Shown one piece after another: positions 1,873-21,714 of a DNA stretch of 21,724 bases. A program made the translations under genes and the position numbers. The stretch's first letter is position 1; each line of letters opens with the position of its first letter. Location: assembly GCA_043797665.1 (NCBI GenBank), contig JAZDPL010000083.1, forward strand, positions 1 through 21,724, given 5' to 3'. Under the pieces are notes generated by a model. The model was given only the letters and a program-made list of their open reading frames with translations. It searched no databases and was not told the origin of the DNA. This DNA comes from Candidatus Omnitrophota bacterium. Lineage in GTDB: Bacteria; Ratteibacteria; UBA8468; MWAK01.

Positions 1873-1992
1873 TGTCATCCTGAGCGCCAGCACGGGTTCC
1901 CTTTCCATAGGATTGGAAAGGGAGGATCTAAAAGAGAGATTCTCCCTAACCAGAGCATTGGTTAGGGTACCCGTGTTTCACTCAGAATGACA
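1873..1992. repeat. TGTCATCCTGAG...CTCAGAATGACA inverted-repeat (REP/MITE-like) element with two internal 32-nt hairpin modules
   Basis: Termini 1873-1884 and 1981-1992 are complementary with 1 mismatch; central GGATCT/AGATTC stem; modules at 1891-1922 (+) and 1944-1975 (-). Confidence 0.8.
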
Positions 1993-2032
1993 GGTAGTGT
2001 CAATTTACATTTTACAATCTTTAATAATTTTT

Positions 2033-3220
2033 ATGGGTGTAACTTATCCGAAGGGTTTTCTATCTTCCGGGATTTCTGCCGGTATCAAAACCGGCGGAAA
2101 GAAGGATTTAGCCCTGGTTCTTTCCGAAGAACCTGCGTCTGCCGCCGGCGTGGCGACCACCAACAAGTTTAAAGCCGCCTCCTTAATCCTGAGTTTGAAA
2201 CATCTCCGTAATAAATACCACCGGGCAATCCTCATCAACAGCGGTAACGCTAACGCCGTCAACGGAAAGGAAGGGATTGCCATTACCCGGCGGCTGGTAG
2301 CAGGTCTGGCGGCCGGACTCAAGATAAAACCGGAAGAGGTTCTCTTTGCCTCCACCGGAAAAATTGGTCTTGTCCTGCCGGAAGATAAGATTAAAAAGGC
2401 TTTGCCGGAATTAGTGAAGAACCTCTCCCTTGACGGTCAGCCGGCGGCTGAGGCTATCCTGACCACTGACCTCCGGATTAAGGAAATAAGTTTAGAGACC
2501 GGCATACCGGGCCGGAAAGGTTTGGTGCGTATCGGCGGTATGGCAAAGGGTGCGGGAATGATTAAGCCGGAATTAGCCACGATGCTGGTAATCTTAACGA
2601 CCGATGCGGTGATTGAAAAGGAAGCCCTCCAATTAGCGTTGCACGAAGCGGTGAAAGAATCCTTTAATTTAATTACGGTGGACGATGACCAGTCCACCAA
2701 CGACTTTGTGGTTGTTTTGGCCAACGGGAAGGCAGGGAACCACCGGATTAAAACAGGAACCCAGCCCTTCTTGCTCTTCCAGGATAGCCTGAGAGACGCC
2801 TGTCAACAGTTAGCCAGGAGTCTGGCGGCGGACGGCGAAGGGGCTCAGAAACTGATTATCGTCAGGGTGACCGGCGCCTGGTCTAAGAAGGACGCCAACC
2901 GGATAGCCCGAAGGATAGCGGGCAGTAACTTAGTTAAGACAACGGTCGCCGGCAACAATCCGAACTGGGGCAGAATTCTGGCTGCCGCCGGCAGTTGCGC
3001 CGCCCGGATAAAGTCGGAAAAGGCCACCCTTTCCCTGGCGAAAACGCTGGTCTTTGACCGGGGCGAACCAATAAGTTTCCCGGAAGAGGCGGTAGCGAAA
3101 GAACTTCAGAAACCGGAGGTGGAGATAGAACTTGACTTAGGTATCGGCAACTTTTCCGCCACCTCCTACGGCTGTGATTTAACCGAAGAGTACGTCAGAA
3201 TAAATAAAGCCTATTCGTAA
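2033..3220 (+). CDS. argJ: ornithine acetyltransferase / N-acetylglutamate synthase
   Basis: PKGF..GI.AGIK, NSGNANA, STGKIG, ILTTD, GMAKGAGMIKPELATML autocleavage motif, STND, DGEGA, PNWGR, GCDLTEEYVRIN; ATG 2033 preferred to GTG 1997. Confidence 0.95.
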   Translation: MGVTYPKGFLSSGISAGIKTGGKKDLALVLSEEPASAAGVATTNKFKAASLILSLKHLRNKYHRAILINSGNANAVNGKEGIAITRRLVAGLAAGLKIKPEEVLFASTGKIGLVLPEDKIKKALPELVKNLSLDGQPAAEAILTTDLRIKEISLETGIPGRKGLVRIGGMAKGAGMIKPELATMLVILTTDAVIEKEALQLALHEAVKESFNLITVDDDQSTNDFVVVLANGKAGNHRIKTGTQPFLLFQDSLRDACQQLARSLAADGEGAQKLIIVRVTGAWSKKDANRIARRIAGSNLVKTTVAGNNPNWGRILAAAGSCAARIKSEKATLSLAKTLVFDRGEPISFPEEAVAKELQKPEVEIELDLGIGNFSATSYGCDLTEEYVRINKAYS

Positions 3221-3230
3221 ACATCCTGAA

Positions 3231-3282
3231 GTAGCGGTGCGATTTATCGCACAAAATACTGTGGCATAAATGCCACCGCTAC
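3231..3282. repeat. GTAG-family REP doublet (REPIN-like) between convergent genes; probable bidirectional terminator or stabiliser
   Basis: GTAGCG-GTGCGA-TTTA-TCGCAC (3231-3252, +) and GTAGCG-GTGGCA-TTTA-TGCCAC (3261-3282, -), inverted, with an 8-nt spacer. Confidence 0.85.
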
Positions 3283-3290
3283 CTGTTACC

Positions 3291-4103
3291 TCAACCTAAG
3301 ATCCGGTCCATCGCCCGGCAGGTCTGGAAAAGAACCATCTCCGGATAGTCCCGGTAGGGTCCCATCTCCGCGGTCAGATAACCGTCGTAACCCACCTCTT
3401 TCAGCGCTTTTATTACCGCCGGGTAATTGACGTCACCCTCCAGAAGGTCGCAGAAACCGGTGATATTGCCCACCGAAGTCTTGAAATCCTTAAGGTGAAT
3501 TCTCTTGATCAGTTTTCCCAGGATGCGAATCCATTGTTCCGGATAACCGGATACTAAAACGTTACCGACGTCAAAGTATGCGGCAACAAAAGGAGAGCCT
3601 ACTTCGGTGATAAACCTTTTCATCTCTAAAGGCGAAAGGAGCATCTTGTTCCAGACGTTCTCCACGCCGATGGAAACCTTTAGTTTTTCTGCTGCCGGAG
3701 CGGCTTCCTTAATTGCTTCCTGACTGCGCCGGTAGGCAACGTCATAGGGCGTAACGTCATCCACCGTTCCGGGTACTACCAGAATGGCATCGGTTCCCAG
3801 GTCGGCAGCCACCGTAAGCATCTTCTGCAGAACTTCTTTTGCTTTGTTCCGTACTTCGTCCTTAAGGCTGCTTAACGGATATTTCCAGAAAAGACCGCAA
3901 GAAAGGCTGGCTAATTCCAGACCTGTTTTACGCACTATATCCGCGGCTTTTTTTACGTCCTGGGGGGTGGAGGTAAGGGTTAGGACTCCCTCTTCCGCCA
4001 GGTTCAGCTCCATCGCTTCAAAACCCGCTTCCTTTGCCAGACCGGCGCACTTTTCCAGGGGCCATTCCCCGGGAAATGCCCAGTGGTTCACACTCTTCTT
4101 CAT
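3291..4103 (-). CDS. sugar phosphate isomerase/epimerase (xylose-isomerase-like TIM barrel)
   Basis: GFEAMEL, GVENVWNK, YFDVGN, IHLKDF and LTAEM metal-binding E/D/H/E pattern; GGAGG SD. Confidence 0.9.
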   Translation of the reverse strand: MKKSVNHWAFPGEWPLEKCAGLAKEAGFEAMELNLAEEGVLTLTSTPQDVKKAADIVRKTGLELASLSCGLFWKYPLSSLKDEVRNKAKEVLQKMLTVAADLGTDAILVVPGTVDDVTPYDVAYRRSQEAIKEAAPAAEKLKVSIGVENVWNKMLLSPLEMKRFITEVGSPFVAAYFDVGNVLVSGYPEQWIRILGKLIKRIHLKDFKTSVGNITGFCDLLEGDVNYPAVIKALKEVGYDGYLTAEMGPYRDYPEMVLFQTCRAMDRILG

Positions 4104-4159
4104 CCTGCCTCCAGTATGTTAAAAGTAACACGAAGTGTCATCGCAATGACCTTAATGTT

Positions 4160-4222
4160 ATTATATTCCTTTTGTTGGACCAAAGTCAAAATTTTGACAC
4201 TGGGAGGGAGAAAAGTTAAAAT
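4160..4222. promoter_or_regulatory. back-to-back divergent sigma70-type promoters
   Basis: + strand TTGACA 4194-4199, N17, TAAAAT 4217-4222; - strand TTGACT 4189-4184, N18, TATAAT 4165-4160. Confidence 0.7.
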
Positions 4223-4240
4223 AAGGCAGGTGGCGAAACG

Positions 4241-4720
4241 ATGGACGAACTTCTAAAATTGGCAGAAGAGGTTGGGGATTTATTGCGGGCAAAGGACTTG
4301 ACCTTAGGCCTGGCAGAGTCATGTACCGGCGGACTTTTAGGTGCGGTGATTACGGAAATTCCGGGAAGTTCTGAATACTTCCGGGGCAGTATCGTTGCCT
4401 ACCACAATAAGGTCAAGAAGAAGGTGTTAAAGGTGCCCGGTACCTTCCTCAGGAAGTTCGGTGCGGTCAGCCCGGAGGTTGCCTCCGCGATGGCCAGGGG
4501 CGCCCGTAAGGCAACCGGAGCCGGAATAGGGCTCTCCGTTACCGGTATCGCCGGACCTTCCGGCGGAAGCCCGGAAAAGCCGGTGGGCTTAGTCTATATC
4601 GGCCTGGATGCGAAGAGGGTTCAACAGGTCCACAAGTTTAACTTTTCCGGAACCCGTTCGGAAATCAGGCAATCCGCCTGCACCCAGGCCCTGCGATTGT
4701 TGCAGGAATTCTTTTCATAA
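4241..4720 (+). CDS. pncC: CinA C-terminal domain protein / nicotinamide-nucleotide amidohydrolase
   Basis: AESCTGG, PGSSEYF, GAVS, SVTGIAGPSGGSPEKPVGLVYIG. Confidence 0.9.
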   Translation: MDELLKLAEEVGDLLRAKDLTLGLAESCTGGLLGAVITEIPGSSEYFRGSIVAYHNKVKKKVLKVPGTFLRKFGAVSPEVASAMARGARKATGAGIGLSVTGIAGPSGGSPEKPVGLVYIGLDAKRVQQVHKFNFSGTRSEIRQSACTQALRLLQEFFS

Positions 4721-6421
4721 CTTTTCCAGTTCAATCCTTGCCACATCGGCAAAAATGTAGCCGTAAGGCATAAAAGTTGGCTTGAGCCTCAGGCGTAATC
4801 TGCCTTTACCCAGGGTAACCCTGCCTACTTCCCGGCGTTGAAAATGGTCAAAAGAGTTTGTATCCGGAACAACCCCTTTTATCTTCTGCGAGTCTACCTC
4901 AATGATAAATTTGGACCCCGCATATATTTTGGGACAACTTAAAATGATGAACACCCTGTATTTCCCGGGTTGAAAGCATTCCAGGTGCCAGTCTGCGGTT
5001 TGTTCTAACCCATACCACCGGGAAATACACAGATTTTTATCCTTTCCGGTTTGAGCATCTTCCGCAGCAATTTGCCGGACTTCTAAAGAAGACCCTTTGA
5101 CCCAGCGGCCGCTGAGGCAGGCGGCTCCCGCAGTCAGCCGGACCTTCCCCGGCCGGTTCAGGGTTGTTACCGGCCTGGACCGCCCCGGCGGGAAAGGAAG
5201 AGTGAGGCGGGCCGGCTTTTTAAAGCAAAGCCTGATAACGTTCACCGAGGTGTTTGCCGGAACGGGCGGCAGGTTTCTTATTTCCAGGCCCCCACCTGTT
5301 TTCTGCACCCGGAGGCTGTGTCGGGAACCCAGAAGCATTGCTTTCCCGGGCAGAGATTGAATGGATGGGATAAGGATGCGGTTTTCCGAAGGCCAGTGCA
5401 GAAGGTGAAGATACAGGTTGTTGCCTGTTTTTGTCGTTAGTACGTCTTCCGGTTTTTGCCTGAGAGGAACCGGTTGAGTCCGATAGACGGACTCGCCGTT
5501 GATACGCAGCCAGGCACCTATTTTTTTCATAATCTCGGCCTGTTCCGCCGGTATCGTTCCGTCCGGTTTCGGCCCCACGTTGAGCAGGTAATTCCCGCCC
5601 GCCGCCGCCATCCGCACCAGACTTTGCATCAAATGAGGAACGGAGTGAGAAGTCCTGTCCTTCGTATATCCCCATTGTGTGACGCTGACGGATTCACAGG
5701 CTTCAAACAGGTAACCGGTAAGGTCTTCCGGAAGAGAACGCTCCGGTGTGAAGAAATCTCCGTATTGGGCACGGTCGTTGACCACGGCCGCGGGCTGGAA
5801 ATGCTTTATCAGCCGGTAAAGTTCTTTGCCGTGCCAGTCCTTTTCGGTTTTATGGGAACCGTCAAACCAGATGCCGTCAATCCTCCCGTAATTGGTAACC
5901 AGTTCTCCGACCTGATCCTTAAGGTATTCCAGATATTTCGGCCAGTCCGGCCGGTCGGTTGGCGGAGGATTCTGCAGGTCCTTCCAGACACCCTTGCGGT
6001 GCACGAAATTTGGGTGATGCCAGTCCGGCTGGGAATAGTACAGGATGATGCGCATGCTTTTCCGGTGGCAGGCATCTACAAGTTCTCCGATGAGGTCGCG
6101 CTTAAATGGTGTGTTGGTTATCTTGTAGTCGGTGAGTTTGCTGTCAAAAAGGCAGAAGCCGTCATGGTGTTTTGCCGTTACGTTGATGTAACGTGCGCCG
6201 GCGGCAATTGCCAGGTCAACCCATTCGTCGGCGTTGAAGCGAAACGGGTTAAAGCGGAGCATCAGTTTTTCGTACTCGGAGCGCGGGATATTTTCATTGT
6301 ACATTACCCACTCACCCCGGCCCAGCAGGGCATAAAGGCCGAAGTGGATAAACATCCCAAAGCGCGACTGGTCAAACCACCTCAATTTGAGGTCGGTTTT
6401 ACTGCTTTGTCTTACGAGCAT
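4715..6421 (-). CDS. alpha-L-fucosidase (GH29) with an extra C-terminal beta-sandwich/CBM-like domain; no signal peptide seen
   Basis: WF...RFGMFIHFGLY, TAKHHDGFCLF, YYS..DW, IWFDG nucleophile motif, VVNDR, LLNVGP..DG. Confidence 0.9.
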   Translation of the reverse strand: MLVRQSSKTDLKLRWFDQSRFGMFIHFGLYALLGRGEWVMYNENIPRSEYEKLMLRFNPFRFNADEWVDLAIAAGARYINVTAKHHDGFCLFDSKLTDYKITNTPFKRDLIGELVDACHRKSMRIILYYSQPDWHHPNFVHRKGVWKDLQNPPPTDRPDWPKYLEYLKDQVGELVTNYGRIDGIWFDGSHKTEKDWHGKELYRLIKHFQPAAVVNDRAQYGDFFTPERSLPEDLTGYLFEACESVSVTQWGYTKDRTSHSVPHLMQSLVRMAAAGGNYLLNVGPKPDGTIPAEQAEIMKKIGAWLRINGESVYRTQPVPLRQKPEDVLTTKTGNNLYLHLLHWPSENRILIPSIQSLPGKAMLLGSRHSLRVQKTGGGLEIRNLPPVPANTSVNVIRLCFKKPARLTLPFPPGRSRPVTTLNRPGKVRLTAGAACLSGRWVKGSSLEVRQIAAEDAQTGKDKNLCISRWYGLEQTADWHLECFQPGKYRVFIILSCPKIYAGSKFIIEVDSQKIKGVVPDTNSFDHFQRREVGRVTLGKGRLRLRLKPTFMPYGYIFADVARIELEKL

Positions 6422-7385
6422 AAAAAGTCCCTCCCGAAAACCACTTCTTTATCCTTATCTTCCCAATGATGAAGGAGAAGGCTTTTGCCTGTGATTCGTG
6501 CGTCACGCCGCCCATGTGCGGCGTAATAATGAGATTGTCGTGCGTCCGCGCATAGCGGATCAGCGGGTTCTCCGCCGTCCTTTCCTGTAATTCATCCGCC
6601 AGCACGTCTAATCCGGCGCCTTTCACTGTGCCGTCATTCAAAGCGGCCAGCAACGCCTGTTCGTCGATCACGGCGCCCCGCGAGGTATTGATCAAGAAAA
6701 CGCCTCGCTTCATCACGGCGAATTCCCTCGTTCCCAGCAGACCGCGCGTCTCCCCGTTGAAGATGACGTGGACCGAAATCGCGTCGGCCCGCCGAAGAAG
6801 AACCGGCAGGGCGACCTGGCGTACCCAGGTATCCTTCACCTTCCGGTAGGAATCGTACGCGAGAATTTTCATGCCGAAGGCGCGTCCGTACCGGGAGACC
6901 ATCTCGCCCAGCCGGCCGTACCCGATGATGCCGAGGGTTTTCCCTTTAAGTTCGTTCCCCCGGAAGTCGGCGCTCTGCCATACTCCGCTCCTCACCGCGT
7001 CAAAAGCAAACGGGATTCTACGGGAGACCGAGAGCAGGAGACCGAAGGCAAGCTCGGCGGTTGCCGACACCTTCTTGAGAAATCGGTACTCCCCGCGAAG
7101 GGAGAGAACCGCGATTCCCCGTTCCCGCGCCGTATCGCAATCGATGTGGTCAATCCCCGTCGATGGCGTGGCGATCGCCTTCAGCCGCCCCGCCGCCTCC
7201 AGCATTCTCCGGTCAAGCATGATATCAAGGGAAGGGATCAAAATATCGTAGCCGCCGATCTTCTTCAGGAGGGCGTCATAGCCGAATCTGCTGTAATCGA
7301 CCGTTCCCAGTTCCTCCAGAAGACGCCTGATTTCCGCCAGGTGAGCGACCGGCGTGTTACAGAGAATCCGAAGTTTGTGCTTCAT
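6399..7385 (-). CDS. D-isomer-specific 2-hydroxyacid dehydrogenase (SerA/GhrB-like catalytic core)
   Basis: GIIGYGRLG, LINTSRGAVIDE, GAGLDV, ITPHMGG. Confidence 0.9.
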   Translation of the reverse strand: MKHKLRILCNTPVAHLAEIRRLLEELGTVDYSRFGYDALLKKIGGYDILIPSLDIMLDRRMLEAAGRLKAIATPSTGIDHIDCDTARERGIAVLSLRGEYRFLKKVSATAELAFGLLLSVSRRIPFAFDAVRSGVWQSADFRGNELKGKTLGIIGYGRLGEMVSRYGRAFGMKILAYDSYRKVKDTWVRQVALPVLLRRADAISVHVIFNGETRGLLGTREFAVMKRGVFLINTSRGAVIDEQALLAALNDGTVKGAGLDVLADELQERTAENPLIRYARTHDNLIITPHMGGVTHESQAKAFSFIIGKIRIKKWFSGGTFYARKTKQ

Positions 7386-8127
7386 GAATGTAACATCCCG
7401 TCGTAGGGAGTAATTTCGCGGGGTCTTGTTCCTCGGAGAGGTATCCGCATCCCGTTTTCTTCCGCGCCGCCGCGATCGCCTCGCGGTAGGCGATGAGTCG
7501 TTCCGTAAAGAACGCCCGGTCGGCGTTTTGCCGACCCCCCGCGATCACTTCGAAGCCGGCTCCCATCACGAGAGCGCCGCTCTCCACGTAGGAGGGGATT
7601 CGTTCCAGCGTCACGCCCCCGGTATAGAAGATCGGAATCACCCCGTGGGTCGGCGACCGCATCATCTTCAGGTATTCCGGGGAAACGCCGACGAACTTGA
7701 TAAGGTCGGCGCCGAAGCCGAGATGTTCGATTCCCTCTCCGGGCGAAGCGACACCGGGGATCAATAATTTCCTTCCGGCGAAACGCCGGTACGTCTCCGC
7801 ATGGAAAGGGACCATCGAGACGAATCCGTCCGCGCCCATCTCCGCAAGTTCCTCCAGCGAATAGAAGGTCCGCCTCTTCTTCAAAAACGAGACCATTGCC
7901 GGATGGTCAAAGGTACTGCCGATCAAAAGGCTCAATCCGGGGAACTCTTTCCGGATGAGGGGGATATTCTCGATATCGTTTCGCCGCAGGGTGAACTCGA
8001 CCGCGGGAACCCCCGCGTCGACAACCGCCCCGCACAAGACGAACGGGTCGAAGTCATCGTCAACGAGAATCGGCACAAACCCGGTCCGGATGAGCGAGGC
8101 AAGTTTTTCCTGCAGGGTCCGATTCAT
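7357..8127 (-). CDS. divergent KDPG/KHG aldolase (Eda)-like protein
   Basis: VEFTLR, IGST, IPGVASPGE, DLIKF (candidate Schiff-base Lys), TGGVT; ATG 8127 has a GAGGT SD. Confidence 0.7.
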   Translation of the reverse strand: MNRTLQEKLASLIRTGFVPILVDDDFDPFVLCGAVVDAGVPAVEFTLRRNDIENIPLIRKEFPGLSLLIGSTFDHPAMVSFLKKRRTFYSLEELAEMGADGFVSMVPFHAETYRRFAGRKLLIPGVASPGEGIEHLGFGADLIKFVGVSPEYLKMMRSPTHGVIPIFYTGGVTLERIPSYVESGALVMGAGFEVIAGGRQNADRAFFTERLIAYREAIAAARKKTGCGYLSEEQDPAKLLPTTGCYIHEAQTSDSL

Positions 8128-8134
8128 GACAACC

Positions 8135-9178
8135 TCACGAAAAATAATACCGTTCACAGTCGTTTCGGCAGGGGAAACCGCAGGTTACAGAAAGGGTCAT
8201 CTCCTGCAAGTCAGCCACCAGGGACCATGTAGTCAGAAGAAATGTTCCGTTCACATCGGCTCCGTGGCAGCAGATGGAATTCGGCAGGTGCCGATGGTCT
8301 TTCAGCGCGGCCAGGCAATCCTTGACGGTGAGTACGCCTAATTTTTCTTGTAGTAGTACGCGCAGCCGCTCCTGCCGGTTCTCTGACTGTTTCCGCCGGT
8401 GCTTAAATGCTTCACGGGACTGCAGTTCCGGGTCCAGGACATGGTTCGCATGAACCACGATGCCGGTCCCGGCGGCCGGGACCCGGCGTGTTTCCCCGAG
8501 AACTTCAAGGCACGCGACCGTTCCTTCACGGTCCGCCATAGTATAGTTCGCCGGCGAGAACTTTAAAATGTCTTTTAACGCCGTTATCCCCGCGTTCAGC
8601 CCCGTACTTTCAAGGAGCACCCGCCGCACGAGGTTGTGCGGAGCGCCCCCCGGCCAGGTCGCCGGATAAATCGCGTTTCCGAATACGGCGACCCCGTTAC
8701 TTCCCATGCCGACCGGGCCGATCTCTCCGGGATAGGTAAGTCCTATAATTGCGGGCCGGTTCCGCGGTTTCATGCGCACGACGAACATCTTCTCCAGCGC
8801 CTCCGGCGTTGTATCTTTATTCTGGCCGGCAAGCGCAGACCCGCTCGCGGCCGCATCCCTCCCGGCCGCGAAAGAAGTGCATCCGCCGGAAAGTCCCTGC
8901 ATTTCCGGCCGGACATTGAGGAAGATGGTTTCGTCCAGGGTAATTCCGGCGCCTTCCGCGATCCCCTTGAGTTCCTCAATGAGATGGTCGAACTTCGCGA
9001 AGAACTGCAGGTATAAGCGCGTCCGGGAAAGGGCATCGCGTTCAGAGGTCTTCCACCGGTCCGCCAGGCAGGAGACGCCTTCCCGGACCGCGGTCCGGAT
9101 CTGCTCTCTCCGCTGCTCCCCGTGGGAACAACCTATTTGATGCGGCGTTCCCGCAATATCAATGCTCTCGGATTTCAT
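8135..9178 (-). CDS. C45 family peptidase (acyl-CoA:6-APA acyltransferase-like Ntn hydrolase)
   Basis: G.PHQIG..HG, EELKGIAEGAG, GGCTSF nucleophile Cys, GQNKD, HANH. Confidence 0.85.
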   Translation of the reverse strand: MKSESIDIAGTPHQIGCSHGEQRREQIRTAVREGVSCLADRWKTSERDALSRTRLYLQFFAKFDHLIEELKGIAEGAGITLDETIFLNVRPEMQGLSGGCTSFAAGRDAAASGSALAGQNKDTTPEALEKMFVVRMKPRNRPAIIGLTYPGEIGPVGMGSNGVAVFGNAIYPATWPGGAPHNLVRRVLLESTGLNAGITALKDILKFSPANYTMADREGTVACLEVLGETRRVPAAGTGIVVHANHVLDPELQSREAFKHRRKQSENRQERLRVLLQEKLGVLTVKDCLAALKDHRHLPNSICCHGADVNGTFLLTTWSLVADLQEMTLSVTCGFPCRNDCERYYFS

Positions 9179-9182
9179 GAGT

Positions 9183-10580
9183 TCATGGCCGGACGTTTCG
9201 CAGCCGCATCATTTCGATGCCGGCAAGCAGAACCGGACCGGACGTAGTGTCCGTGTACGGACGCGAGAGATAAAACTGCGGGTCCAGCGAGGCAGACGTG
9301 CCCCGGCACACGGAAAGCAGGCGGTCGTCGCAAAAGAAGAACGCCTTGATCGCCCGCCAGGCGTTCAACAACATACGTTCCGCGTCCTCTGAACGGAGCC
9401 ATCCGTTCCGCAGCGCCCGCGCGTACACCTGGGTGAAGATACAGGTACAACTCGCCTCCGGACGGCTGCGGGAATCATCGAGGACATTGCGCCAGAACCC
9501 GCATTTGTCCTGGACAGGCATAATCCCTGCGAGGATTTTTTCGAGAAGACCGGTGAGATACGGACGATTCGAATCTGTGGGTTTGAGTTCATCAAGAACG
9601 CCGGTGATGCCCAAAAGAACCCACCCCAATCCTCTGCCCCAGAAGACCGGCGTGTGCCTGCCGGGCATTCCTGCATGATACCACAGGCCGGAAGGAGCCG
9701 CACATAGTTTTTCCGTCACCCGTATCTGGCGGAGGGCTTCGTCCAGGTATCTGCGGTCACCGGTAATTCGTGCGAGACACGCCGCAGTCGGACAGAACAT
9801 CGCAAGAACTTCAACCCAGAGCCAGGCGTCCCTTCCCGGCTGGTGCACCATTGCCCCGGAAATTCTCGGGAATTCCGCAATCGCCCGGTCAACGCGGTCT
9901 TTCGCGTAAGAAAGGTAGACGGGGTCCCCGGTTTTTTCATACCGATGCAGTACATATCTCAACGGTGCGAGATTATCGGTGTTTTCGATCCGGTTCGGGG
10001 TTTCTTTCATGAACAGAACGATAGTCTTTTCAAAAACTTTATCCAGCGACCGGTCACCCAGGTATCGCACGGTTTCTTCAGTAGGTCGCCAGTACTGGTA
10101 AGCGGTCGCATCGTTCCACGCGCGGTAAAAAACCACCTCCTTTCGGAGTACGCCGGCCAGTCGCCGGATGAGCCGGTTATCTGAGGCGCGGTCGCCGGAA
10201 GCGAGAATGTCTTCATAGTCCGGCGCGAGGGATGCGTTCAATTCCAGCGTCTCAACGGAGTTCCGCAAGGCGTCTTCCGGAAGCCAACCCCGGTCCGGCA
10301 AGTCGAGCGGGAGGATATAGACGCCCCTTTTCCGGAACGCTTCCACCTGCCGCGAAAATTTTCGCGTGGTTTTTTTCCGGAGGACGACGGCTTTCACACC
10401 GCGGATGTCATGCGGAAAAGATGCGGGCAGGTCAAGAGTGCCGGTACGGTACAAGGGAATTCCCTTTTCGAGTAACAGTCCTGCGAAGCGAACCAGATGC
10501 GCCTGCGTGTTTCCGGCGGAGGCAGGAATCAGGACGGCGGCGCGGCCACGGTGCGGTTCTCCCGGCGGGTGGTAGTTCAT
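9183..10580 (-). CDS. GH105/GH88-like (unsaturated uronyl hydrolase) protein with an N-terminal extension
   Basis: GLWYH, FWGRGLGW, QDKCGFW.NV, EASCTCIF; start uncertain (10580 vs 10634). Confidence 0.75.
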   Translation of the reverse strand: MNYHPPGEPHRGRAAVLIPASAGNTQAHLVRFAGLLLEKGIPLYRTGTLDLPASFPHDIRGVKAVVLRKKTTRKFSRQVEAFRKRGVYILPLDLPDRGWLPEDALRNSVETLELNASLAPDYEDILASGDRASDNRLIRRLAGVLRKEVVFYRAWNDATAYQYWRPTEETVRYLGDRSLDKVFEKTIVLFMKETPNRIENTDNLAPLRYVLHRYEKTGDPVYLSYAKDRVDRAIAEFPRISGAMVHQPGRDAWLWVEVLAMFCPTAACLARITGDRRYLDEALRQIRVTEKLCAAPSGLWYHAGMPGRHTPVFWGRGLGWVLLGITGVLDELKPTDSNRPYLTGLLEKILAGIMPVQDKCGFWRNVLDDSRSRPEASCTCIFTQVYARALRNGWLRSEDAERMLLNAWRAIKAFFFCDDRLLSVCRGTSASLDPQFYLSRPYTDTTSGPVLLAGIEMMRLRNVRP

Positions 10581-10590
10581 GGGGAAGGCA

Positions 10591-11298: not shown

Positions 11299-11322
11299 GA
11301 CATCCTCCTTTTTTTAAACGGC

Positions 11323-11979: not shown

Positions 11980-12020
11980 ATGCCACCTCCAGATCCGAAG
12001 GGTGTTTCATAAGCGTATTC

Positions 12021-12063
12021 ATATTGTAACGATACAATATCACGCAGAAGGAAATTTTGTCAA
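12021..12063 (-). promoter_or_regulatory. promoter of the prepilin-led operon with palindromic operator copy 1
   Basis: - strand TTGACA 12063-12058, N18, TATTGT 12039-12034 preceded by TG-n; palindrome ATATTGTA-ACGA-TACAATAT 12021-12040. Confidence 0.8.
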
Positions 12064-12064
12064 G

Positions 12065-14881: not shown

Positions 14882-15009
14882 GCAATCCTCCGTAAAAATC
14901 CGCCGGGCCAACACCAAAAACTTTATTGACTTTTACCGTTTCTTATTTGACACTACCCCTTGCGCACCGTTGCGCCGGACGTCAGTTCCGGCTTAACCGC
15001 CTTGTTTCC

Positions 15010-16143
15010 CTACCGCACCGATTCGCCTTTCCTGAAGTTTCTTTCTCCTTTCAGAATATCCGGGATATCCATACGAAAATTGAGTCTGGTAACCTCCGGG
15101 ACCGGTCTTTTTTCCAAAAGATTACCCAGGATGCGCGCAACTTCTTTTCCCAGTTCCGCCGAGGGCTTCACCAAACCGATAATTGGTGCCATAACATAGT
15201 CTTTATAGTCTTCCTCCACCACACTTATTACCACCACTTCCTGGGGGATTCTGAGCTGTTGCTCATGGATGTACCGGAGCACTTTAGGCAGAATGTGAGG
15301 GTTGGCAACGAAGAGGACCGCCGGCTTTGGGGCGGCAAAATATTCCCTGGGGAGAGAGAAAGAAGGAGAACCAGGCTCCAGATACACCACCTTTATATTT
15401 TCTTTTGGTACCTGCGCTTCCTGGAGGGCTTGTTTGAAGCCGCTGAATCTTTCGGCTCCGGGGAGACTTTCCGGGGGCCCAAGGAAGATAAGCCGGCCGG
15501 CGTTGAGGGAGCGAACCGCCCGCAAGGTAACTTCGTAAAAAGTTTTACGGTTATCAAACCCGACAAACGGCGCGTTGACGTGAGGAATTATAATATCAAC
15601 AATGACAAAAGGGCACTCGCCGCTTTTGTTTAAATTCACAAAATACTTCCCGTACTCGGGGTTGTAAACATTTTGGGTGAGGGGATTAATGATGAGGCCG
15701 TCTATGTTTTTCTTCAGGGAATGGATGAGGTTGAGTTCTTTATCAAACTCGGTGTATCCATTACAGACGATTATCCGGTGGTTTTCCTCAGACAGCGCCT
15801 GTTCTATTCCCTTGATGAGAAGAGTACAGAACCGGTCGGTAATATCCGAAACGCAGACTCCGACCAGCCGTGTCTTTTTCCGTCTCCGCCCCTTTGGATT
15901 GACGTATATTCCACTACCCCATCTTCGGGAGATTAGATTTTCCTCTTCCAATTCCCGTAGCGCCCGGTCAAGCGTAGACTGACTTACCGAAATATTTGCC
16001 ATTATCTCCCGCATCGTCAGAATTTTATCCCCGGGTTTCAAACGAAGAATCTCTTTTTGCAGCAGGTCCTTGACCGCTAAATATTTGGGCGTCTTTATCC
16101 AGGAATTCAATACATTTTGGGATGAAAGAAATTGTTTCTCCAT
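15010..16143 (-). CDS. GntR-family transcriptional regulator with LacI-type periplasmic-binding-protein sensor domain (AraR-like architecture)
   Basis: PKY..VKD.L, LKPGDKI, VSQSTLDRALRELEEENLISRRWGSGIYV winged HTH; then GIEQAL, IDGLII, VGFDN, ERFSGF, LRIPQEV. Confidence 0.9.
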   Translation of the reverse strand: MEKQFLSSQNVLNSWIKTPKYLAVKDLLQKEILRLKPGDKILTMREIMANISVSQSTLDRALRELEEENLISRRWGSGIYVNPKGRRRKKTRLVGVCVSDITDRFCTLLIKGIEQALSEENHRIIVCNGYTEFDKELNLIHSLKKNIDGLIINPLTQNVYNPEYGKYFVNLNKSGECPFVIVDIIIPHVNAPFVGFDNRKTFYEVTLRAVRSLNAGRLIFLGPPESLPGAERFSGFKQALQEAQVPKENIKVVYLEPGSPSFSLPREYFAAPKPAVLFVANPHILPKVLRYIHEQQLRIPQEVVVISVVEEDYKDYVMAPIIGLVKPSAELGKEVARILGNLLEKRPVPEVTRLNFRMDIPDILKGERNFRKGESVR

Positions 16144-16162
16144 TGTTTTCCAACTGTTTTAT

Positions 16163-16204
16163 TATTGTAACGATACAATACTATATAGCCATATCCCGTG
16201 TCAA
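16163..16204 (-). promoter_or_regulatory. regulator promoter with palindromic operator copy 2
   Basis: - strand TTGACA 16204-16199, N18, TATTGT 16180-16175; TATTGTAACGATACAATA 16163-16180 is identical to 12022-12039. Confidence 0.8.
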
Positions 16205-16257
16205 GTCCCCGTACCGGAAGGGGGCCTGCACCCTGGTCGGCAAATCCTAATCGGAGT

Positions 16258-16286
16258 TTTACAATTGCCGGGAATTATACTAAAAT
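16258..16286 (+). promoter_or_regulatory. sigma70-type promoter of the URO-D family gene
   Basis: TTTACA 16258-16263, N17, TAAAAT 16281-16286. Confidence 0.55.
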
Positions 16287-16310
16287 ATTAAGGGGGAGCA
16301 ACCTTTAAGG

Positions 16311-17420
16311 ATGCGCGGAGAAAAATCCCAACCGGACTGGAAGGAGTTTAAGGAGGTTATCCTTCGGCAAAAAATTCCTTCCCGGGTGCCTCTCTTTGAA
16401 CTCCACATAGATAAGGAGGTTGTCCGGTATTTTGTGAAAAACCTATTGGGAAGGGAATGGGTGGAGCCGGGTCTGGCGAAAGAACGCCGGGACCAGGAAA
16501 CGGTTCTGCAGAACAATATTCTGGTTTGGCGCCAATTAGGTTACGACTATCTCAGGCTTACCGCGGACTTCCGTTTTTCCGCCTCGCTTTCTTTTGCTTC
16601 CCGGAGCCGGGCCACCCGGGATACCGCTGACCTTAGCCGGGGAACCAGAAAGTGGGTGGAAGAAGGGAAAGGGGCCATCGCTACCCGGGAAGATTTCGAA
16701 AAGTTTCCCTGGCCATCTTTAGAAGAGGTGGACCCCTGGCCCTTTGAGTTTCTCTCTAAAAATCTACCTTCCGGACTGGGTTTCTTTGCCACTTTTTCCC
16801 AGGGAATCTTTGAAATACTTACCAACGAACTCTTTGGTTTAGAATCATTGGGGTACCTTATCTATGACAACCCTGAGCTGGTGGAGGCGGTTACCGATAA
16901 GGTGGGCGAACTGATTTACGGATGTTACCGGAAGGTCCTCGGACTGGATAACCTGTTGGGTTTTGTCCAGGGAGACGATATGGGTTTTAAGACCGCCACC
17001 CTGGTTTCACCGCAGTTTTTGCGGAAGTACGTCCTGCCCTGGCACAAAAAATTGGCGCAGTTTGCCCACAGCCACAACCTCCTTTATATCCTCCACAGTT
17101 GCGGGAACATAGAGCCGATTATGGAGGAACTGATATCCGAGGTAAAAATAGACGCCAAGCACTCTTTTGAGGATGCCATTATGCCGGTGGCCGGGTTTAA
17201 GAAAAAATACGGGGAGCGGATTGGGGTTTTGGGCGGGGTGGACGTCAACAAACTCTGCCTTCTGAAAGAGGCCGCACTGCGTCAATACGTACGTAAAATT
17301 CTGGATGAGTGTATGCCGGGCGGCGGTTACGCCCTGGGTACCGGCAATTCTGTCGCAAACTACATACCGATAGAAAATTACCTGGCAATGCTGGACGAAG
17401 GCACTAAGTGGAAGAGGTAA
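16311..17420 (+). CDS. uroporphyrinogen decarboxylase superfamily protein (MtaA/CmuA-like branch; not clearly HemE)
   Basis: GDDMGFK, LHSCGNI, DAKHSFED, VLGGVDV, GGGYALGTGNS. Confidence 0.85.
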   Translation: MRGEKSQPDWKEFKEVILRQKIPSRVPLFELHIDKEVVRYFVKNLLGREWVEPGLAKERRDQETVLQNNILVWRQLGYDYLRLTADFRFSASLSFASRSRATRDTADLSRGTRKWVEEGKGAIATREDFEKFPWPSLEEVDPWPFEFLSKNLPSGLGFFATFSQGIFEILTNELFGLESLGYLIYDNPELVEAVTDKVGELIYGCYRKVLGLDNLLGFVQGDDMGFKTATLVSPQFLRKYVLPWHKKLAQFAHSHNLLYILHSCGNIEPIMEELISEVKIDAKHSFEDAIMPVAGFKKKYGERIGVLGGVDVNKLCLLKEAALRQYVRKILDECMPGGGYALGTGNSVANYIPIENYLAMLDEGTKWKR

Positions 17421-18334
17421 AAGGCGCGGAGGCTGACCATAACTGCATTGTCAAGACAGAGGGCGATAGGCGGGATACGTAATTCCACCGTGTTCTCTTC
17501 GGCCCATACTTTTAGTAGGTTCCGGATAAAATTGTTTGCCAGAACCCCCCCTCCGGTCAGGACCGACCGGACCGGCTCTTTCCGGTAAGCGTAGTCTAAC
17601 TTCCGCACCAATCCTTCGGCTACCGATTGCTGAAAGCCTGCGGCGACCTCCGCCTTCTCCGCATCAGGGTGTTCCTTCAGATAATAAGCCACCGCGGTCT
17701 TCAGACCGCTGAAACTGAAGTCGTAGGAATTGCGGACCCCGGGCAGGGGAAACCGCACCGGATTTTCTGATTCTTCCGCTAATTTTTCTACTTGGGGACC
17801 GCCGGGATAAGGCAGAGAAAGGAGCCGGGCTACTTTGTCAAACGCCTCGCCGGCCGCATCGTCCCGGGTTTCACCCAGGACTTCAAAATTGTTCGGACCG
17901 GTTACCAGGAAGATGGAAGAATGTCCTCCGGAAACAACCAGTCCTAAGGCGGGGAACGGCGAAGGTTCCGGTAAGAAATTGGCGGATAGGTGTGCTTCCA
18001 GGTGGTCTACGGGAAGGAACGGGATTTCTAACGCCGAGGCGATTGCCCGGCCAAAATTTTCACCAATCAGCAGGGAACCGGAAAGACCCGGCTTGGTTGT
18101 GGCCGCAACCGCAGAGATGTCTGTTTTCTTAATTTCAGCCTTCTTAAGGCAAATGTTAAAGAGAGGTACGATTACTTCCAGGTGCCTCCGGCTGGCTAAT
18201 TCCGGAACTACTCCGCCGTAAAGGGAATGAATATCATTCTGGCTGGCCACCTCGGAAGCCAGGATTTTATTTCCGTCTGCCACCAGGGCAATTGCGGTCT
18301 CATCGCAGGAACTCTCTATGCCTAAGATAACCAT
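17378..18334 (-). CDS. tsaD: tRNA N6-threonylcarbamoyladenosine (t6A) transferase
   Basis: ILGIESSCDET, GGVVPELASRRH, HLEAH, VSGGHS, GETRDDAAGEAFDK, FSFSGLKT, DNAVM; start 18334 or 18352. Confidence 0.95.
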   Translation of the reverse strand: MVILGIESSCDETAIALVADGNKILASEVASQNDIHSLYGGVVPELASRRHLEVIVPLFNICLKKAEIKKTDISAVAATTKPGLSGSLLIGENFGRAIASALEIPFLPVDHLEAHLSANFLPEPSPFPALGLVVSGGHSSIFLVTGPNNFEVLGETRDDAAGEAFDKVARLLSLPYPGGPQVEKLAEESENPVRFPLPGVRNSYDFSFSGLKTAVAYYLKEHPDAEKAEVAAGFQQSVAEGLVRKLDYAYRKEPVRSVLTGGGVLANNFIRNLLKVWAEENTVELRIPPIALCLDNAVMVSLRAFYLFHLVPSSSIAR

Positions 18335-18394
18335 AGACTGACTACTTCTCATTAAGATTTACGCTCGCTTTTCTATTCTACCATATACCGTATA

Positions 18395-18439
18395 ATCCTA
18401 TACAATTAACTTGACTAATTGTATAGGATGTTATAAGAT
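18395..18439 (+). promoter_or_regulatory. promoter of the AAA/DUF4143 gene with a perfect 14-bp inverted repeat
   Basis: ATCCTATACAATTA (18395-18408)-N7-TAATTGTATAGGAT (18416-18429); TTGACT 18411-18416, N17, TAAGAT 18434-18439. Confidence 0.75.
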
Positions 18440-18463
18440 TAGAAAGGTTAAAATGGGGGTATA

Positions 18464-19843
18464 ATGAGAATCAGATACAACACGATAGGTACAGATGGAC
18501 TCTGGGGAACGTTTAATGAGTTGAAGGTTGATACTGAGCAGATAGTCTCCAGAGAATCCCTGAAAAATATCGTTGAGCGGTTGGATAAGAATGCGGTCGA
18601 AGTTCTGTGTGGTCCCAGGCAAAGCGGAAAGACAACGCTTCTGTATCTTTTAATGATAGAAATTACAAAAAAGAATGTGCCCCCGGAATATATTCACTAT
18701 CTTAACATAGACACCCTTCCAGACTACGCAATTTTTGAAAATCCGGTTAGATTCTGCCAGGCTATCCGGGAGAGTCATCAAAATAACAAGGAACAGAAAG
18801 TATATCTACTATTGGACGAAATACAACGATTAAAGAATCCCGGGCTGTTTCTTAAAGCCATTTACGATAGTTGCCCGGATATAAAACTGATTGTTTCCGG
18901 TTCCTCGTCTCTGGAAATAAGAGCCAAAACCAAAGAGTTTTTAACTGGCCGGAAGTATGAAACTTTGCTCCTTCCCTTGTCTTATCGAGAAATAGTACGT
19001 TACTCAAAAAAGTTGCCCCCCAATTTTTTTGAAGAAAAGGTGACCGCCGATAACATTGAACTCTGGAAAGAACGTCAACAGATATATGGCCAGTTTTTAG
19101 TTGAACAGATGATGGAAATGGCAATTCATGGCGGTTATCCCGGTGTCTTTATGGCAGAAAACAAAAAAGACAAAGAAGGGATACTCTATGAACTATATAA
19201 TTCCTACGTGAAGAAAGATATTACAGATTTCTTGAAGGTGGAGAACCTTTCTCTATTTAATAACTTAGCAAAAACGCTTGCGGCTCAAATAGGGGGTTTA
19301 ATCAACCTTTCCCAAATTTGTTCTTTGTTGGGAGGGAACCGGATTACTATCAGTAAGTATCTTAATATTCTTGAAGAAACATACGTAATTAAGGCTCTGA
19401 CTCCGTTCGTTAGAAACAAAAGGAACGAAGTCAAATATGCCAAGAAATGTTTTTTTAATGACTGCGGATTTCGTAATCTTCCCCTTAATCAATTTGGAAA
19501 AGTTTCAGAGAGGTCTGACTTTGGTAGTCTTCTGGAAAATATGGTTGCCCAAGAGAGTATCAAATCGCTGGGACCGTTTAACAACCTCTATTACTGGAGA
19601 ACCAAGGCGGGAGCAGAAGTTGATTTTGTGATTGAATCGGCCGGGGGAATCATACCGGTGGAGGTAAAGTTCTTATCGGCAAAAATTGGCACATTATCCC
19701 GAAGTTTCCATAGTTTTCTTGAGGCTTATCATCCCCCAAAATCTTTCTTTCTGAATCGCGACCAGGTCGGTTGCTTGAAGAAAAACAATACTGAAGTCTT
19801 TTACCTCCCTATCCATTGGTTTCTTCTTGGTTGCGCTATTTAG
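18464..19843 (+). CDS. ATP-binding protein, AAA_14 + DUF4143 family
   Basis: Walker A GPRQSGKTT, Walker B LLLDEIQ, SGSSS, GGYP, YWRTKAGAEVDFV...PVEVK PD-(D/E)xK-like tail; visibly AT-richer than flanks. Confidence 0.9.
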   Translation: MRIRYNTIGTDGLWGTFNELKVDTEQIVSRESLKNIVERLDKNAVEVLCGPRQSGKTTLLYLLMIEITKKNVPPEYIHYLNIDTLPDYAIFENPVRFCQAIRESHQNNKEQKVYLLLDEIQRLKNPGLFLKAIYDSCPDIKLIVSGSSSLEIRAKTKEFLTGRKYETLLLPLSYREIVRYSKKLPPNFFEEKVTADNIELWKERQQIYGQFLVEQMMEMAIHGGYPGVFMAENKKDKEGILYELYNSYVKKDITDFLKVENLSLFNNLAKTLAAQIGGLINLSQICSLLGGNRITISKYLNILEETYVIKALTPFVRNKRNEVKYAKKCFFNDCGFRNLPLNQFGKVSERSDFGSLLENMVAQESIKSLGPFNNLYYWRTKAGAEVDFVIESAGGIIPVEVKFLSAKIGTLSRSFHSFLEAYHPPKSFFLNRDQVGCLKKNNTEVFYLPIHWFLLGCAI

Positions 19844-20832
19844 GAAATGATTTGCTGGTAGAGAAGGGGGATGGAGACCTTGTGGTCAATACAGAAGTGA
19901 AAGCCTTTGCCGCCCAAACTGACCGGCCGGCTGACGATGTTCTTCCAGGGCCGGTAATAGTAGTGATAGATATTGTGTCCGTTTAGAGTCCGGTAGTTAC
20001 CCAGGTCAATCAGGTCAAAGTTGGCGGTGGTAAACTTCTTCACCTTAAACCCCAGGTTTCGGGCAATGGAAAGCGCCTTTAAGAAGACCTCCGGACCAAT
20101 CATCGCGCTGCCAAAGTTTAAGAAGACTCCGCCTTCTAATTGGGAAACAGACCGGCAGTACTTTTTGAAGTCAATCCCGGCGGCTCCACCCAAAGCAGAA
20201 AAGTCGACGTCAGGATGCTGGTGGATGATGTCGGTCCCCAGGGCGATATGAAAGGTGGCTGGGATTCCGCATTTGTATGCCTGGTAAAGGACGGAAATAT
20301 CCCGGTAGGGAAACCGCTTGGGATGTTTGTCTATGTAGACCGCTAAACTCTCCCCGTAGCCTGAGCGTTGAGAACGCCCGGTGCGTTGAGAACGTTTTAA
20401 CCAGCCATCCCTGATAGCCTGGTTCATCCATCTGCCGGTCTCCTCCCACATCCCGAATGAGCCATCCTCAAGGGCTGAAGATACGTCTTCCGAGGTTCCG
20501 CCCAAATAGGCTAATTCAAAGTCGTGGATACTGACCGCACCGTTTCCCGCCAGGTGCTGAACAAAACCCGCCTTCATCAATTCAATCAGATAACGGGAAA
20601 GTCCGGATTTGATTACGTGACCACCTAAAGACCAGATAATGGGCCGACACTTCCTTTTCGCCTGCCGGATTCGCTCCACCAGTTCCTCAAACTCCGGACT
20701 TTCCTGGAGACCCTTGACGGTTTCATTCCGGGGCAGTTGGTATTTACCCGGCACCAGAATATTCTTCCGGTCTACCAGGTTCTTCCGGTCCCGGGCAGAA
20801 AATGTCCTGATTCTGGCGAAATCAAATTCCAT
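19840..20832 (-). CDS. deoxyhypusine-synthase-like hypothetical protein
   Basis: LGGHVIKSGL, NGAVSIHDFELA, TSEDV, DGSFGM, LGTDIIHQHP, NFGSA..GPEVFLKAL; family recalled from motif pattern. Confidence 0.65.
   Translation of the reverse strand: MEFDFARIRTFSARDRKNLVDRKNILVPGKYQLPRNETVKGLQESPEFEELVERIRQAKRKCRPIIWSLGGHVIKSGLSRYLIELMKAGFVQHLAGNGAVSIHDFELAYLGGTSEDVSSALEDGSFGMWEETGRWMNQAIRDGWLKRSQRTGRSQRSGYGESLAVYIDKHPKRFPYRDISVLYQAYKCGIPATFHIALGTDIIHQHPDVDFSALGGAAGIDFKKYCRSVSQLEGGVFLNFGSAMIGPEVFLKALSIARNLGFKVKKFTTANFDLIDLGNYRTLNGHNIYHYYYRPWKNIVSRPVSLGGKGFHFCIDHKVSIPLLYQQIIS
20359..20394. repeat. in-frame 18-bp tandem duplication
   Basis: GCGTTGAGAACG at 20365-20376 and 20383-20394; encodes RSQRTG-RSQRSG. 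Confidence 0.8.
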
Positions 20833-20850
20833 AGAATTCTCCTAACTATT

Positions 20851-21636
20851 TTACTTGGCGGTGTAGCCGCCGTCAACCGGGATGTTGGCGCCGGTAAGGT
20901 AGACTGAGGCGTCTGACGCCAGAAACACAACGGCACCCATCAGGTCGGTCTCGTTAGCCAGCCGGCCTAAGAATGTCCGGTCGCTGTACTGCCGGACAAA
21001 GGCTTCCGGCATCTTGGCGGTCCACAGTCCACCCGGACTGACGCAGTTGCAGCGGACACCGCTGGAACCGTAGTAACTGGCGATGAACCGGGTAAAGTTA
21101 ATCATACCGCCCTTGTGGAAAAAGTAGTCCGGAGCCCAACCGCTCATATCCGTGCCCCGGTAGATTGTCGGGTCCGGTCCAATTATCCCGTGGATGGAAC
21201 CGACATTAATGATGGAACCGTTTTTTTGTTTAGCCATTACGCCACCAAACGCGCGGGTGACGATAAAGAGACCGGTTGCGTTAACCTGCATACTTTCCGC
21301 AAAGGTCTTGGCATCATCCTGGAAACCTTTTTTCATCGGCCGCAGGACCGCATTATTCACCAGAACGTCTATCCGGCCGCTCCGGTCCATAATCTCGTCT
21401 TTCAGTTTCAGAATAGAGATTTCCTCGGCAAGATTCAATTCTAACGCCGTAACGTCTTCTCCTCTGGAACGGTGTTCCTCTGCCAGTACTTCCAGGGTTT
21501 TTAAATTCCGGGAGGCGACGTAGGTTTTGGCGCCGGATTCGGCTAAGGCGGAGACAACCTGCCGGCCGTATAATCCGGCACCGCCGGTTGCTAACGCCAC
21601 TTTTCCTTTAAGGCTGAACTTTTCCAGGATACCCAT
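20851..21636 (-). CDS. SDR family oxidoreductase
   Basis: TGGAGLYG, DVLVNNA, NVGS, YFFHK (YxxxK), SPGG, TGANIPVDGG; AAGGAG SD favours ATG 21636. Confidence 0.92.
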   Translation of the reverse strand: MGILEKFSLKGKVALATGGAGLYGRQVVSALAESGAKTYVASRNLKTLEVLAEEHRSRGEDVTALELNLAEEISILKLKDEIMDRSGRIDVLVNNAVLRPMKKGFQDDAKTFAESMQVNATGLFIVTRAFGGVMAKQKNGSIINVGSIHGIIGPDPTIYRGTDMSGWAPDYFFHKGGMINFTRFIASYYGSSGVRCNCVSPGGLWTAKMPEAFVRQYSDRTFLGRLANETDLMGAVVFLASDASVYLTGANIPVDGGYTAK

Positions 21637-21663
21637 TTGACTCCTTTTGTTCTGCGACCACCC

Positions 21664-21714
21664 GCAGGCTAAAGCCTGCACGGGTCCCCTTCCCTTAGGA
21701 TAGGGAAGGGCTAC
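21664..21714 (-). repeat. GTAG-family REP interrupted by a 32-nt hairpin module
   Basis: + strand GCAGGC-TAAA-GCCTGC (21664-21679), module CACGGGT-C-CCCTTCCCT-TAGGAT-AGGGAAGGG (21679-21710), then CTAC (21711-21714). Confidence 0.8.

Follow-up and report, generated by a model that had tools for sequence, protein, structure and literature searches.

Introduction

Hairpin repeats with a GTAG or CGTC tag, the repetitive extragenic palindromic sequences (REPs), and the REPINs built from them occur with RAYT transposases. They are hairpins of 20–50 nt with a short unpaired 5′ tag; they have many intergenic copies and some lie in frame within genes (PMC8266576, PMC3733652, PMC3116915). REPs inserted in other palindromes have been reported (PMC3733652). 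IS200/IS605 elements and TnpA-REP enzymes work with a short leader 5′ of the hairpin and with cleavage sites chosen by a guide (PMC8266576). Cleavage by RAYTs is known in vitro but the mechanism of REP dissemination is not (PMC8266576). Here we describe a hairpin element of this general kind. It occurs three times in a stretch of 21,724 nt (the window) of contig JAZDPL010000083.1, from a Candidatus Omnitrophota genome (G000; 2.69 Mb, 93 contigs, 86% complete). The element is an inserted unit, and two bases of its target are replaced when it inserts.

Elhai and colleagues are said to have described, in 2008, Nostoc small dispersed repeats (SDRs) of 21–27 nt, with nesting. Like the present element, Nostoc SDRs are very small mobile repeats whose mover is unknown; they differ in phylum, sequence and target. 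One of them, SDR5, has its precise insertion point between bases 3 and 4 of HIP1 (PMC4390886). The Haloquadratum element SMR-A has further features in common with ours: it is transposase-free, makes no target duplication, strongly prefers the palindromes of other mobile elements and has an unknown mover (PMC3119063). Elements of the IS200/IS605 type, and the palindrome-associated transposable elements (PATEs), also have a hairpin near their ends, lack terminal inverted repeats and target duplication, and possibly carry guide bases at the hairpin foot. Insertion at GG without duplication is a property of IS607 (PMC6188088).

A family of small hairpins

The window contains three copies of the element, all intergenic, and the positions, sequences and geometry in the original prediction were confirmed. 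Copy A (1892–1922, + strand) has the leader A-CGGGT-T, a 9 bp stem and a TAGGAT loop. Copy B (1944–1974, − strand) is an ATGCTC-loop variant, a loop class that dominates in the sister genus g3. Copy C lies at 21680–21710 on the + strand. Each copy folds as a 9 bp stem with a 6-nt loop (z −3.8, −4.8 and −2.1 for A, B and C). The leader-hairpin pattern has three matches in the window against 0.08 expected, a number reached in 0 of 100 shuffles. There were no Rfam matches at the gathering score in the window. Copy C is repeated at the start of contig C58; the two are the same locus because C58 overlaps the window end by 141 nt.

The host palindromes are of two types, as had been proposed. Copies A and B occupy one arm each of an inverted pair of TGTC-tagged REP-like repeats (1873–1992), which is related to the CGTC/TGTC REPs and has 25 + 25 empty relatives. 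Copy C lies within a GTAG-tagged REP-like hairpin (21663–21714, − strand) that is broken next to its tag and has 19 empty relatives. The reconstructed empty A/B host did not match the published string of the Ssn-related motif (SRM), which matches 133 other sites in the genome.

The unit had been predicted to be 32 nt long, with an invariant 7-nt leader. The base before the unit is variable (C 39%, T 34% and G 26% of 137 copies), and contigs from unrelated sequencing runs match exactly over 1892–1922 and have unlike flanks beyond. Hence, the unit is 31 nt and the leading C of CACGGGT is host DNA. Nor is the unit's first base fixed: it is A in 104, G in 39 and T in 2 of 145 distinct 31-mers. None of the contigs from sequencing runs, which represent small shares of those runs, joined across the window site.

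A fixed-geometry scan of G000 gave 150 matches. Removal of 4 unrelated hairpins and 7 opposite-strand double counts left 139; without one chance match and the contig-overlap duplicate of copy C, the family numbers ~137 copies. In a relaxed leader-plus-stem scan there were 147 matches; two control genomes of Markov-4 type gave 9 and 14, none of them with the ACGGGT leader. The 31-nt subtype has the leader RCGGGTN, a 9 bp stem and a 6-nt loop that is mostly TNGRAT; the sequences examined included no inverted copy with a TNGRAT loop. Two 26-nt subtypes have a 7 bp stem and a 5-nt loop, with leaders RCGGGTN and RCGGGGW. Over 194 distinct events the leader is RCGGG(T/G)N (host-duplicated copies were collapsed, for statistics, to 164–194 distinct events).

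Covariation of the stem with pairing kept, as originally suggested, was borne out. Stem pairs 13/26 and 16/23 each occur in all four Watson–Crick combinations among the 145 distinct 31-mers. In 19 hand-picked variants 171 of 171 cells were paired, and 5 of the 9 pairs had changes on both sides. Metagenome matches, found with a search pattern that left four stem pairs free, were perfectly paired in 95 of 103 cases; 4 had one mismatch and 4 were chance matches.

Of 65 genomes of the phylum, 8 had the pattern. One match is due to chance, and the other 7 genomes belong to genera g1 and g3 of a single family. Within that family, G002 (86% complete) and G004 (85% complete) gave no match. The 26-nt forms are abundant in genus g1 only. 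A narrower pattern gave 42 loci among 185,579 species genomes, and those titles that bear a taxon name Ca. Ratteibacteria or Ca. Omnitrophota. Viral contigs had 0 matches for two patterns.

The element is an inserted unit

Host repeats lacking the element were found for all three copies, with exact empty hosts numbering 6 for A (GA), 11 for B (GA) and 11 for C (4 GA and 7 GG). Filled and empty alleles also occur at orthologous sites. Thus, the A-first copy at C85:49567 corresponds to GA in L161, and the G-first copies at L164, L186 and L028/L150 correspond to GG empties in relatives. A 26-nt copy within uppP splits a CCG codon and adds 8 residues; the codon is intact in 5 of 5 relatives. Copies are also nested within one another, up to three deep (L081). 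Since empty alleles exist for all three hosts, at orthologous sites and in the conserved uppP codon, the element is an inserted unit. The original prediction of a tiny, non-autonomous inserted unit is supported by these empty hosts, by enrichment in repeats and by the ~137 copies. All three outcomes named beforehand as refuting it, namely a lack of further copies genome-wide, random placement relative to host repeats and hosts that always contain the module, were thus absent.

About 10 copies share one site of a ~270 bp multi-copy host, where inheritance by host duplication is probable. A ~270 bp multi-copy element that often hosts the hairpin lies in frame within an mfd-like gene (L282:~430–700, G000 C61) with a direct repeat at its ends; G000 contains 25 long matches to it, and several copies are present in G001, G006 and G008.

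Comparison with G001 (662 kb, about half of the genome) aligned 21 of 132 and 18 of 36 contexts. The aligned contexts mostly had a different repeat or none at the site, with few clean filled/empty pairs. Protein searches for empty alleles of gene-internal copies were informative for uppP only; the sites in a LysM gene and in mfd were too diverged, and the gene-internal site in C92 is filled in G001 as well.

Several side observations concern the insertion sites. At one orthologous site, G000 C68:~38900 and L164 both carry a 31-nt-type element with different stem and loop sequences, which suggests a hot spot where elements insert repeatedly or are replaced. L297 and L177 contain head-to-tail dimers of a 26-nt subtype with a period of 24; the L297 dimer occupies a site that in G000 (C92:91542) has a single copy. 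In L020:560–650, and likewise in L030 and L031, the element lies in what resembles the T-arm of a tRNA-Leu 3′ half, without a callable 5′ half. ARAGORN found no tRNA gene at the tRNA-like sites, even with the insert removed. At least two other small leader-plus-hairpin modules (CCCTGC...GCAGGG and CCGCC...GGCGG types) are inserted in host repeats of G000, for example in C40, C47, C27 and C77. By appearance, their junctions look like simple insertions.

The insertion footprint

Comparison of filled and empty sites shows that a target X-G-R-Y becomes X-R-CGGG...GG-G-Y. The unit takes the place of both target bases, so that the net gain is 29 or 24 nt, and it begins with the base that was second in the target; GA targets hold A-first copies and GG targets hold G-first copies. 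Empties identified by fuzzy flanks (28 of 216 distinct sites) comprised 13 A-first copies at GA, 10 G-first at GG, one A-first at GG and no G-first at GA (Fisher p = 5.6e-6 for the rule). With exact flanks of 9 + 9 bases there were 15 A/GA and 8 G/GG sites among 37 sites with any empty, the remainder lying mostly in variable host loops. Nine of nine self-nestings into exactly restorable copies obeyed the rule (7 A/GA and 2 G/GG; 250 contexts examined). In genus g3, empties were available at 5 of 40 sites and included the predicted dinucleotide at 3. For the window, GA was the base pair sequence replaced by copies A and B; we infer GA for copy C, whose host has empties of both GA and GG type.

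At GG targets the product resembles a clean 29-nt insertion. This is not so at GA targets, which hold ~70% of copies, where X-G-A-Y becomes X-A...G-Y and the order of the two bases is reversed. HUH chemistry involves a 5′-phosphotyrosine and a 3′-OH (PMC8266576). Exchange at a single phosphodiester keeps the target order. Hence, for the GA footprint to arise, either the target GR must be removed and a matching pair supplied by the element, or the target's own bases must be redistributed. We are all but certain that the element inserts as a discrete unit at GR within RRB-GR-VD, with a net gain of 29 or 24 nt and the product X-R-CGGG(T/G)N-stem-loop-G-Y, in which pairing and not stem sequence is conserved.

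Mutual information ties the first base to the hairpin variant with z 3.1, compared with 2.6 for position 7 and 4.0 for target position +1. These ties are similarly weak, so the test does not separate a mobile unit of 31 nt from one of 29 nt. One site common to G000 and G001 differs in the first base (A versus G), implying that later mutation or repeat insertion happens too.

Target choice

Repeats, defined by a conservative 13-mer rule, hold 90 of 137 copies and only 24–26% of non-coding GR sites, so placement is not random with respect to host repeats. Nor is it confined to them. The original prediction had the element always nested in REP-like repeats, whereas 26-nt forms occur in genes such as uppP and some 31-mers lie in non-repeat DNA. 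Many copies outside the 13-mer-rule repeats are repeat-like by eye; some are in unique DNA or genes. Crude open reading frame (ORF) calls contain 47 of 139 copies, many of these calls being spurious extensions, and the credible gene-internal copies are mostly 26-nt forms or lie within in-frame host hairpins. A gain of 29 nt breaks reading frames whereas copies adding 24 nt survive in genes; the excess in repeats is therefore probably due in part to purifying selection. The preference is thus real but not absolute, and is probably shaped by frame-shift selection.

The flank consensus RRB-GR-VD fits 73% of the 137 copies, compared with 16% of GR sites in repeats; out of sample, in genus g3, it fits 24 of 40 sites. 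The in-loop self-insertions that we observed are all in TTGAAT loops; the common TAGGAT loop, where GR is preceded by the disfavoured A, had none. Leader position 7 could pair with the +1 base less often than expected (18 versus 48 of 174 sites). After host collapse the figures were 18 versus 38.7 of 136, and since host families are not independent the effect may be inflated. In genus g3, G occupies +1 at 35 of 40 sites and position 7 is mostly G or T. Avoidance of pairing by position 7 suggests that the strand is single and folded when it inserts, or that copies with longer stems are lost. Orientation relative to flanking genes was weakly biased (40:25).

Comparison with described systems

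The element is a short, multi-copy and mostly extragenic hairpin, as are GTAG/CGTC REPs. It differs from them in its tag, which over the 194 distinct events is RCGGG(T/G)N and not GTAG, CGTC or TGTC, and in its target, GR with the two bases reversed, where REPs have CT/CA cleavage. Whereas a REPIN moves as an inverted doublet, the mobile unit here is a singlet whose ends are fixed; in the host of A and B, each arm carries a different variant. Unlike a REPtron, it flanks no cognate tnpA-REP. SMR-A differs in its length (~110 bp), its terminal inverted repeats and its archaeal host, and the excerpts of its description report no base reversal (PMC3119063).

In contrast to IS200/IS605 elements and PATEs, our element has a single hairpin and no autonomous partner, and it does not keep the target order (at GA, the G before A is missing on the left). 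No strand bias was detected in the assembly of 93 contigs (49:51 against local GC skew). Compared with IS607, it targets mostly GA, its 31 nt are too short for subterminal repeat arrays, and G000 has no IS607-sized TnpA match. The miniature inverted-repeat transposable elements, or MITEs, are set apart by the asymmetric 7-nt leader of our element and its net gain of 29 or 24 nt without duplication, and SRMs by the GTC start that it lacks. The element works like the tiny non-autonomous elements of REP, SDR and SMR type, and differs in the respects given from GTAG/CGTC REPs, REPINs, PATEs, MITEs, SRMs and IS607. We found no description of the family or of the base reversal in a literature search that left most subscription journals and supplements outside its reach, and the SDRs, compared by description only, may have similar junctions. 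We could not match the footprint to a described transposition mechanism.

Candidate enzymes

G000 encodes a RAYT-like protein at C47:11213–11644. Like its relatives, this gene is flanked by GTAG repeats. The genome also has three small GIY-YIG genes flanked by GTC-tagged repeats, a DUF559 gene and the reverse transcriptase (RT) of a diversity-generating retroelement (DGR), together with two serine and six tyrosine recombinase matches. Both Resolvase matches lie in frames of 560–674 codons, which are not IS607-sized genes. Genes that have the element on both sides are ordinary ones; named by eye, they are V-ATPase D-like, rpL18-like, SecG-like and glycosidase-like, and one encodes a giant protein. 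No autonomous partner was found among the repeat-flanked, low-GC small genes of G000. In the assemblies examined, which were 70–91% complete, one RAYT gene in G006 has the element within its upstream GTAG-like repeat only. Small GIY-YIG matches also occur in G002, G009 and G012, none of which has the element. Across relatives, the presence or absence of Y1, GIY-YIG or C47 RAYT genes does not track the element. Mobilisation by a RAYT/TnpA or GIY-YIG enzyme, the candidates to which the original prediction pointed, was not shown; no such gene is flanked by the element, the RAYT clade occurs in three genomes without it, and the GA footprint differs from precise HUH cut-and-join.

Two further loci bear on the enzymes of G000. 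L001 (G000 C3:3356–4708) encodes a Y1/RAYT-like N-terminal domain fused to an unrelated C-terminal part, which is probably membrane-anchored; hairpin modules are nested in frame within it. L360:612–2328 (G000 C50) encodes an RT by Pfam match, and we take it to be a DGR-like locus with a small Avd-like gene and a template-repeat-like stretch.

Possible mechanisms of insertion

We tentatively favour single-strand transfer by a HUH-type enzyme, acting in trans on a 31-nt dumbbell with a target-like junction; the enzyme steps below are all conjectural. A non-autonomous hairpin of 31 nt, or of 26 nt for the short subtypes, would reach new sites through copying by an enzyme whose gene lies elsewhere. 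It would move as single-stranded DNA, probably a small closed dumbbell, whose end-to-start junction AGG-G|R-CG would fit the target consensus. A strand-transfer enzyme of HUH type (Y1/RAYT-like) would open this junction between G and R, and cut the target on both sides of the matching GR. Strand polarity would dictate that X is joined to R and G to Y, giving the reversed order. Position 7 of the leader would face the first downstream target base and may help in target choice.

Several observations weigh against this account. A standard HUH exchange would keep both target bases, for a gain of 31 nt, and an extra cut must be assumed. No circularly permuted copy, and no tandem copy with a period of 31, was present among the sequences examined; the two tandem dimers have a period of 24, which is the net length. 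Among the 28 sites with fuzzy-flank empties are one A/GG, two A/AA and one A/TA exception and one unreadable case, and three copies are T-first. Empties were obtained for only 28 of the 216 distinct sites, and host families are not independent samples. No enzyme was identified; the RAYT, Y1-domain fusion, GIY-YIG, DUF559, DGR RT and serine and tyrosine recombinase genes of G000 are not bracketed by the element as an autonomous unit. The C47 RAYT clade is found at 52–57% identity in G009, G011 and G013, all without the element, and the C47 RAYT query found nothing in G007 and G008 (77% and 83% complete), which have it.

Some of these points suit a mobile unit of 29 nt (24 nt in the short forms), with the target's own G passing to the 3′ end and its R to the 5′ end by multi-step strand shuffling. 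The moved G would complete the stem, with C8 pairing as guide. Such a unit accounts for the net gain of 29 or 24 nt with no base lost, gives the invariant target G an evident partner in C8, and fits both the dimer period of 24 and the occurrence of 11 of 16 listed hairpin variants in A-first and G-first form. The cost is that one target strand must be cut three times, with about four transfers. Moreover, re-insertion into the terminal GG explains the dimers equally well, and the first base is weakly tied to the hairpin variant (z 3.1), as are the element-borne position 7 and the +1 base. On balance a 29-nt unit seems unlikely, though worth serious consideration. We rate more highly, while still doubting it, the broader proposition that integration uses an undescribed chemistry, in which the two target bases are redistributed to opposite ends of a 24–29-nt insert or replaced by a dumbbell-circle pair, by an enzyme family new to mobile DNA.

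If, instead, a nuclease such as a Ssn-type GIY-YIG enzyme cut at GR, two bases could be lost and host repair could patch the gap with a hairpin oligonucleotide or by copying from another element. Small GIY-YIG genes flanked by GTC-tagged repeats are present in G000, many targets lie in such repeats, and cleavage by Ssn enzymes falls in single-stranded DNA close to their repeats (PMC11893778). However, repair offers no account of why the first base matches the lost purine, or of base-precise ends without donor flank; some targets are GTAG repeats, other hairpins, coding DNA or the element itself, and G002, G009 and G012 have GIY-YIG matches and no element. We regard this route as improbable. 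An RNA intermediate copied by the DGR RT, for which the avd/RT locus at C50 could be a source, or a serine transposase acting on a 2 bp core, is more improbable still. G-first copies do resemble clean GG insertions of the kind made by IS607 (PMC6188088). Conversely, neither target-primed reverse transcription nor exchange of identical 2 bp cores yields the reversed order at the ~70% of copies in GA, the Resolvase frames are not of IS607 size, and the gene-orientation bias of 40:25 is weak. Finally, the hairpin might be an integral, variant part of host repeats that spreads only by host copying, as probably happened for the ~10 copies in the ~270 bp host. Empty hosts outnumber filled ones, the 194 distinct events are in unrelated contexts, and there is in-frame insertion in uppP and nesting three deep; empty alleles and gene insertions refute host copying as a general account, and we give it hardly any credence.

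Genes and other repeats in the window

The A/B host lies between a Gfo/Idh/MocA oxidoreductase gene (723–1865, + strand), upstream, and argJ (1997–3220, + strand), downstream. The actual argJ start is probably the ATG near 2033. Copy C is in the upstream region of a short-chain dehydrogenase gene (20851–21636, − strand). At 105–703 a small antitoxin-like ORF without a Pfam match precedes a PemK/MazF-like toxin gene, a probable type II toxin–antitoxin pair. REP-like repeats without the element are a GTAG-tagged inverted pair at 3231–3282 and a C-rich/G-rich hairpin at 19–70; the C-rich/G-rich hairpin family is frequently targeted by the element elsewhere.

Implications

How repeats of REP size spread is a long-open question. 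To this question the family brings a base-precise footprint, a target consensus, a co-varying structure and a position-specific correlation between element and target. Together these turn REP spread into an oligonucleotide assay with 31-nt substrates. In its hosts, the family also extends housekeeping proteins by in-frame inserts of 8 residues. If reversal of the bases is real chemistry, it points to a strand-transfer reaction outside the known classes. Were the chemistry indeed undescribed, the element would be a near-minimal, structure-encoded replicator, a parasite of every other repeat family of its host, with leader bases that steer it to its targets.

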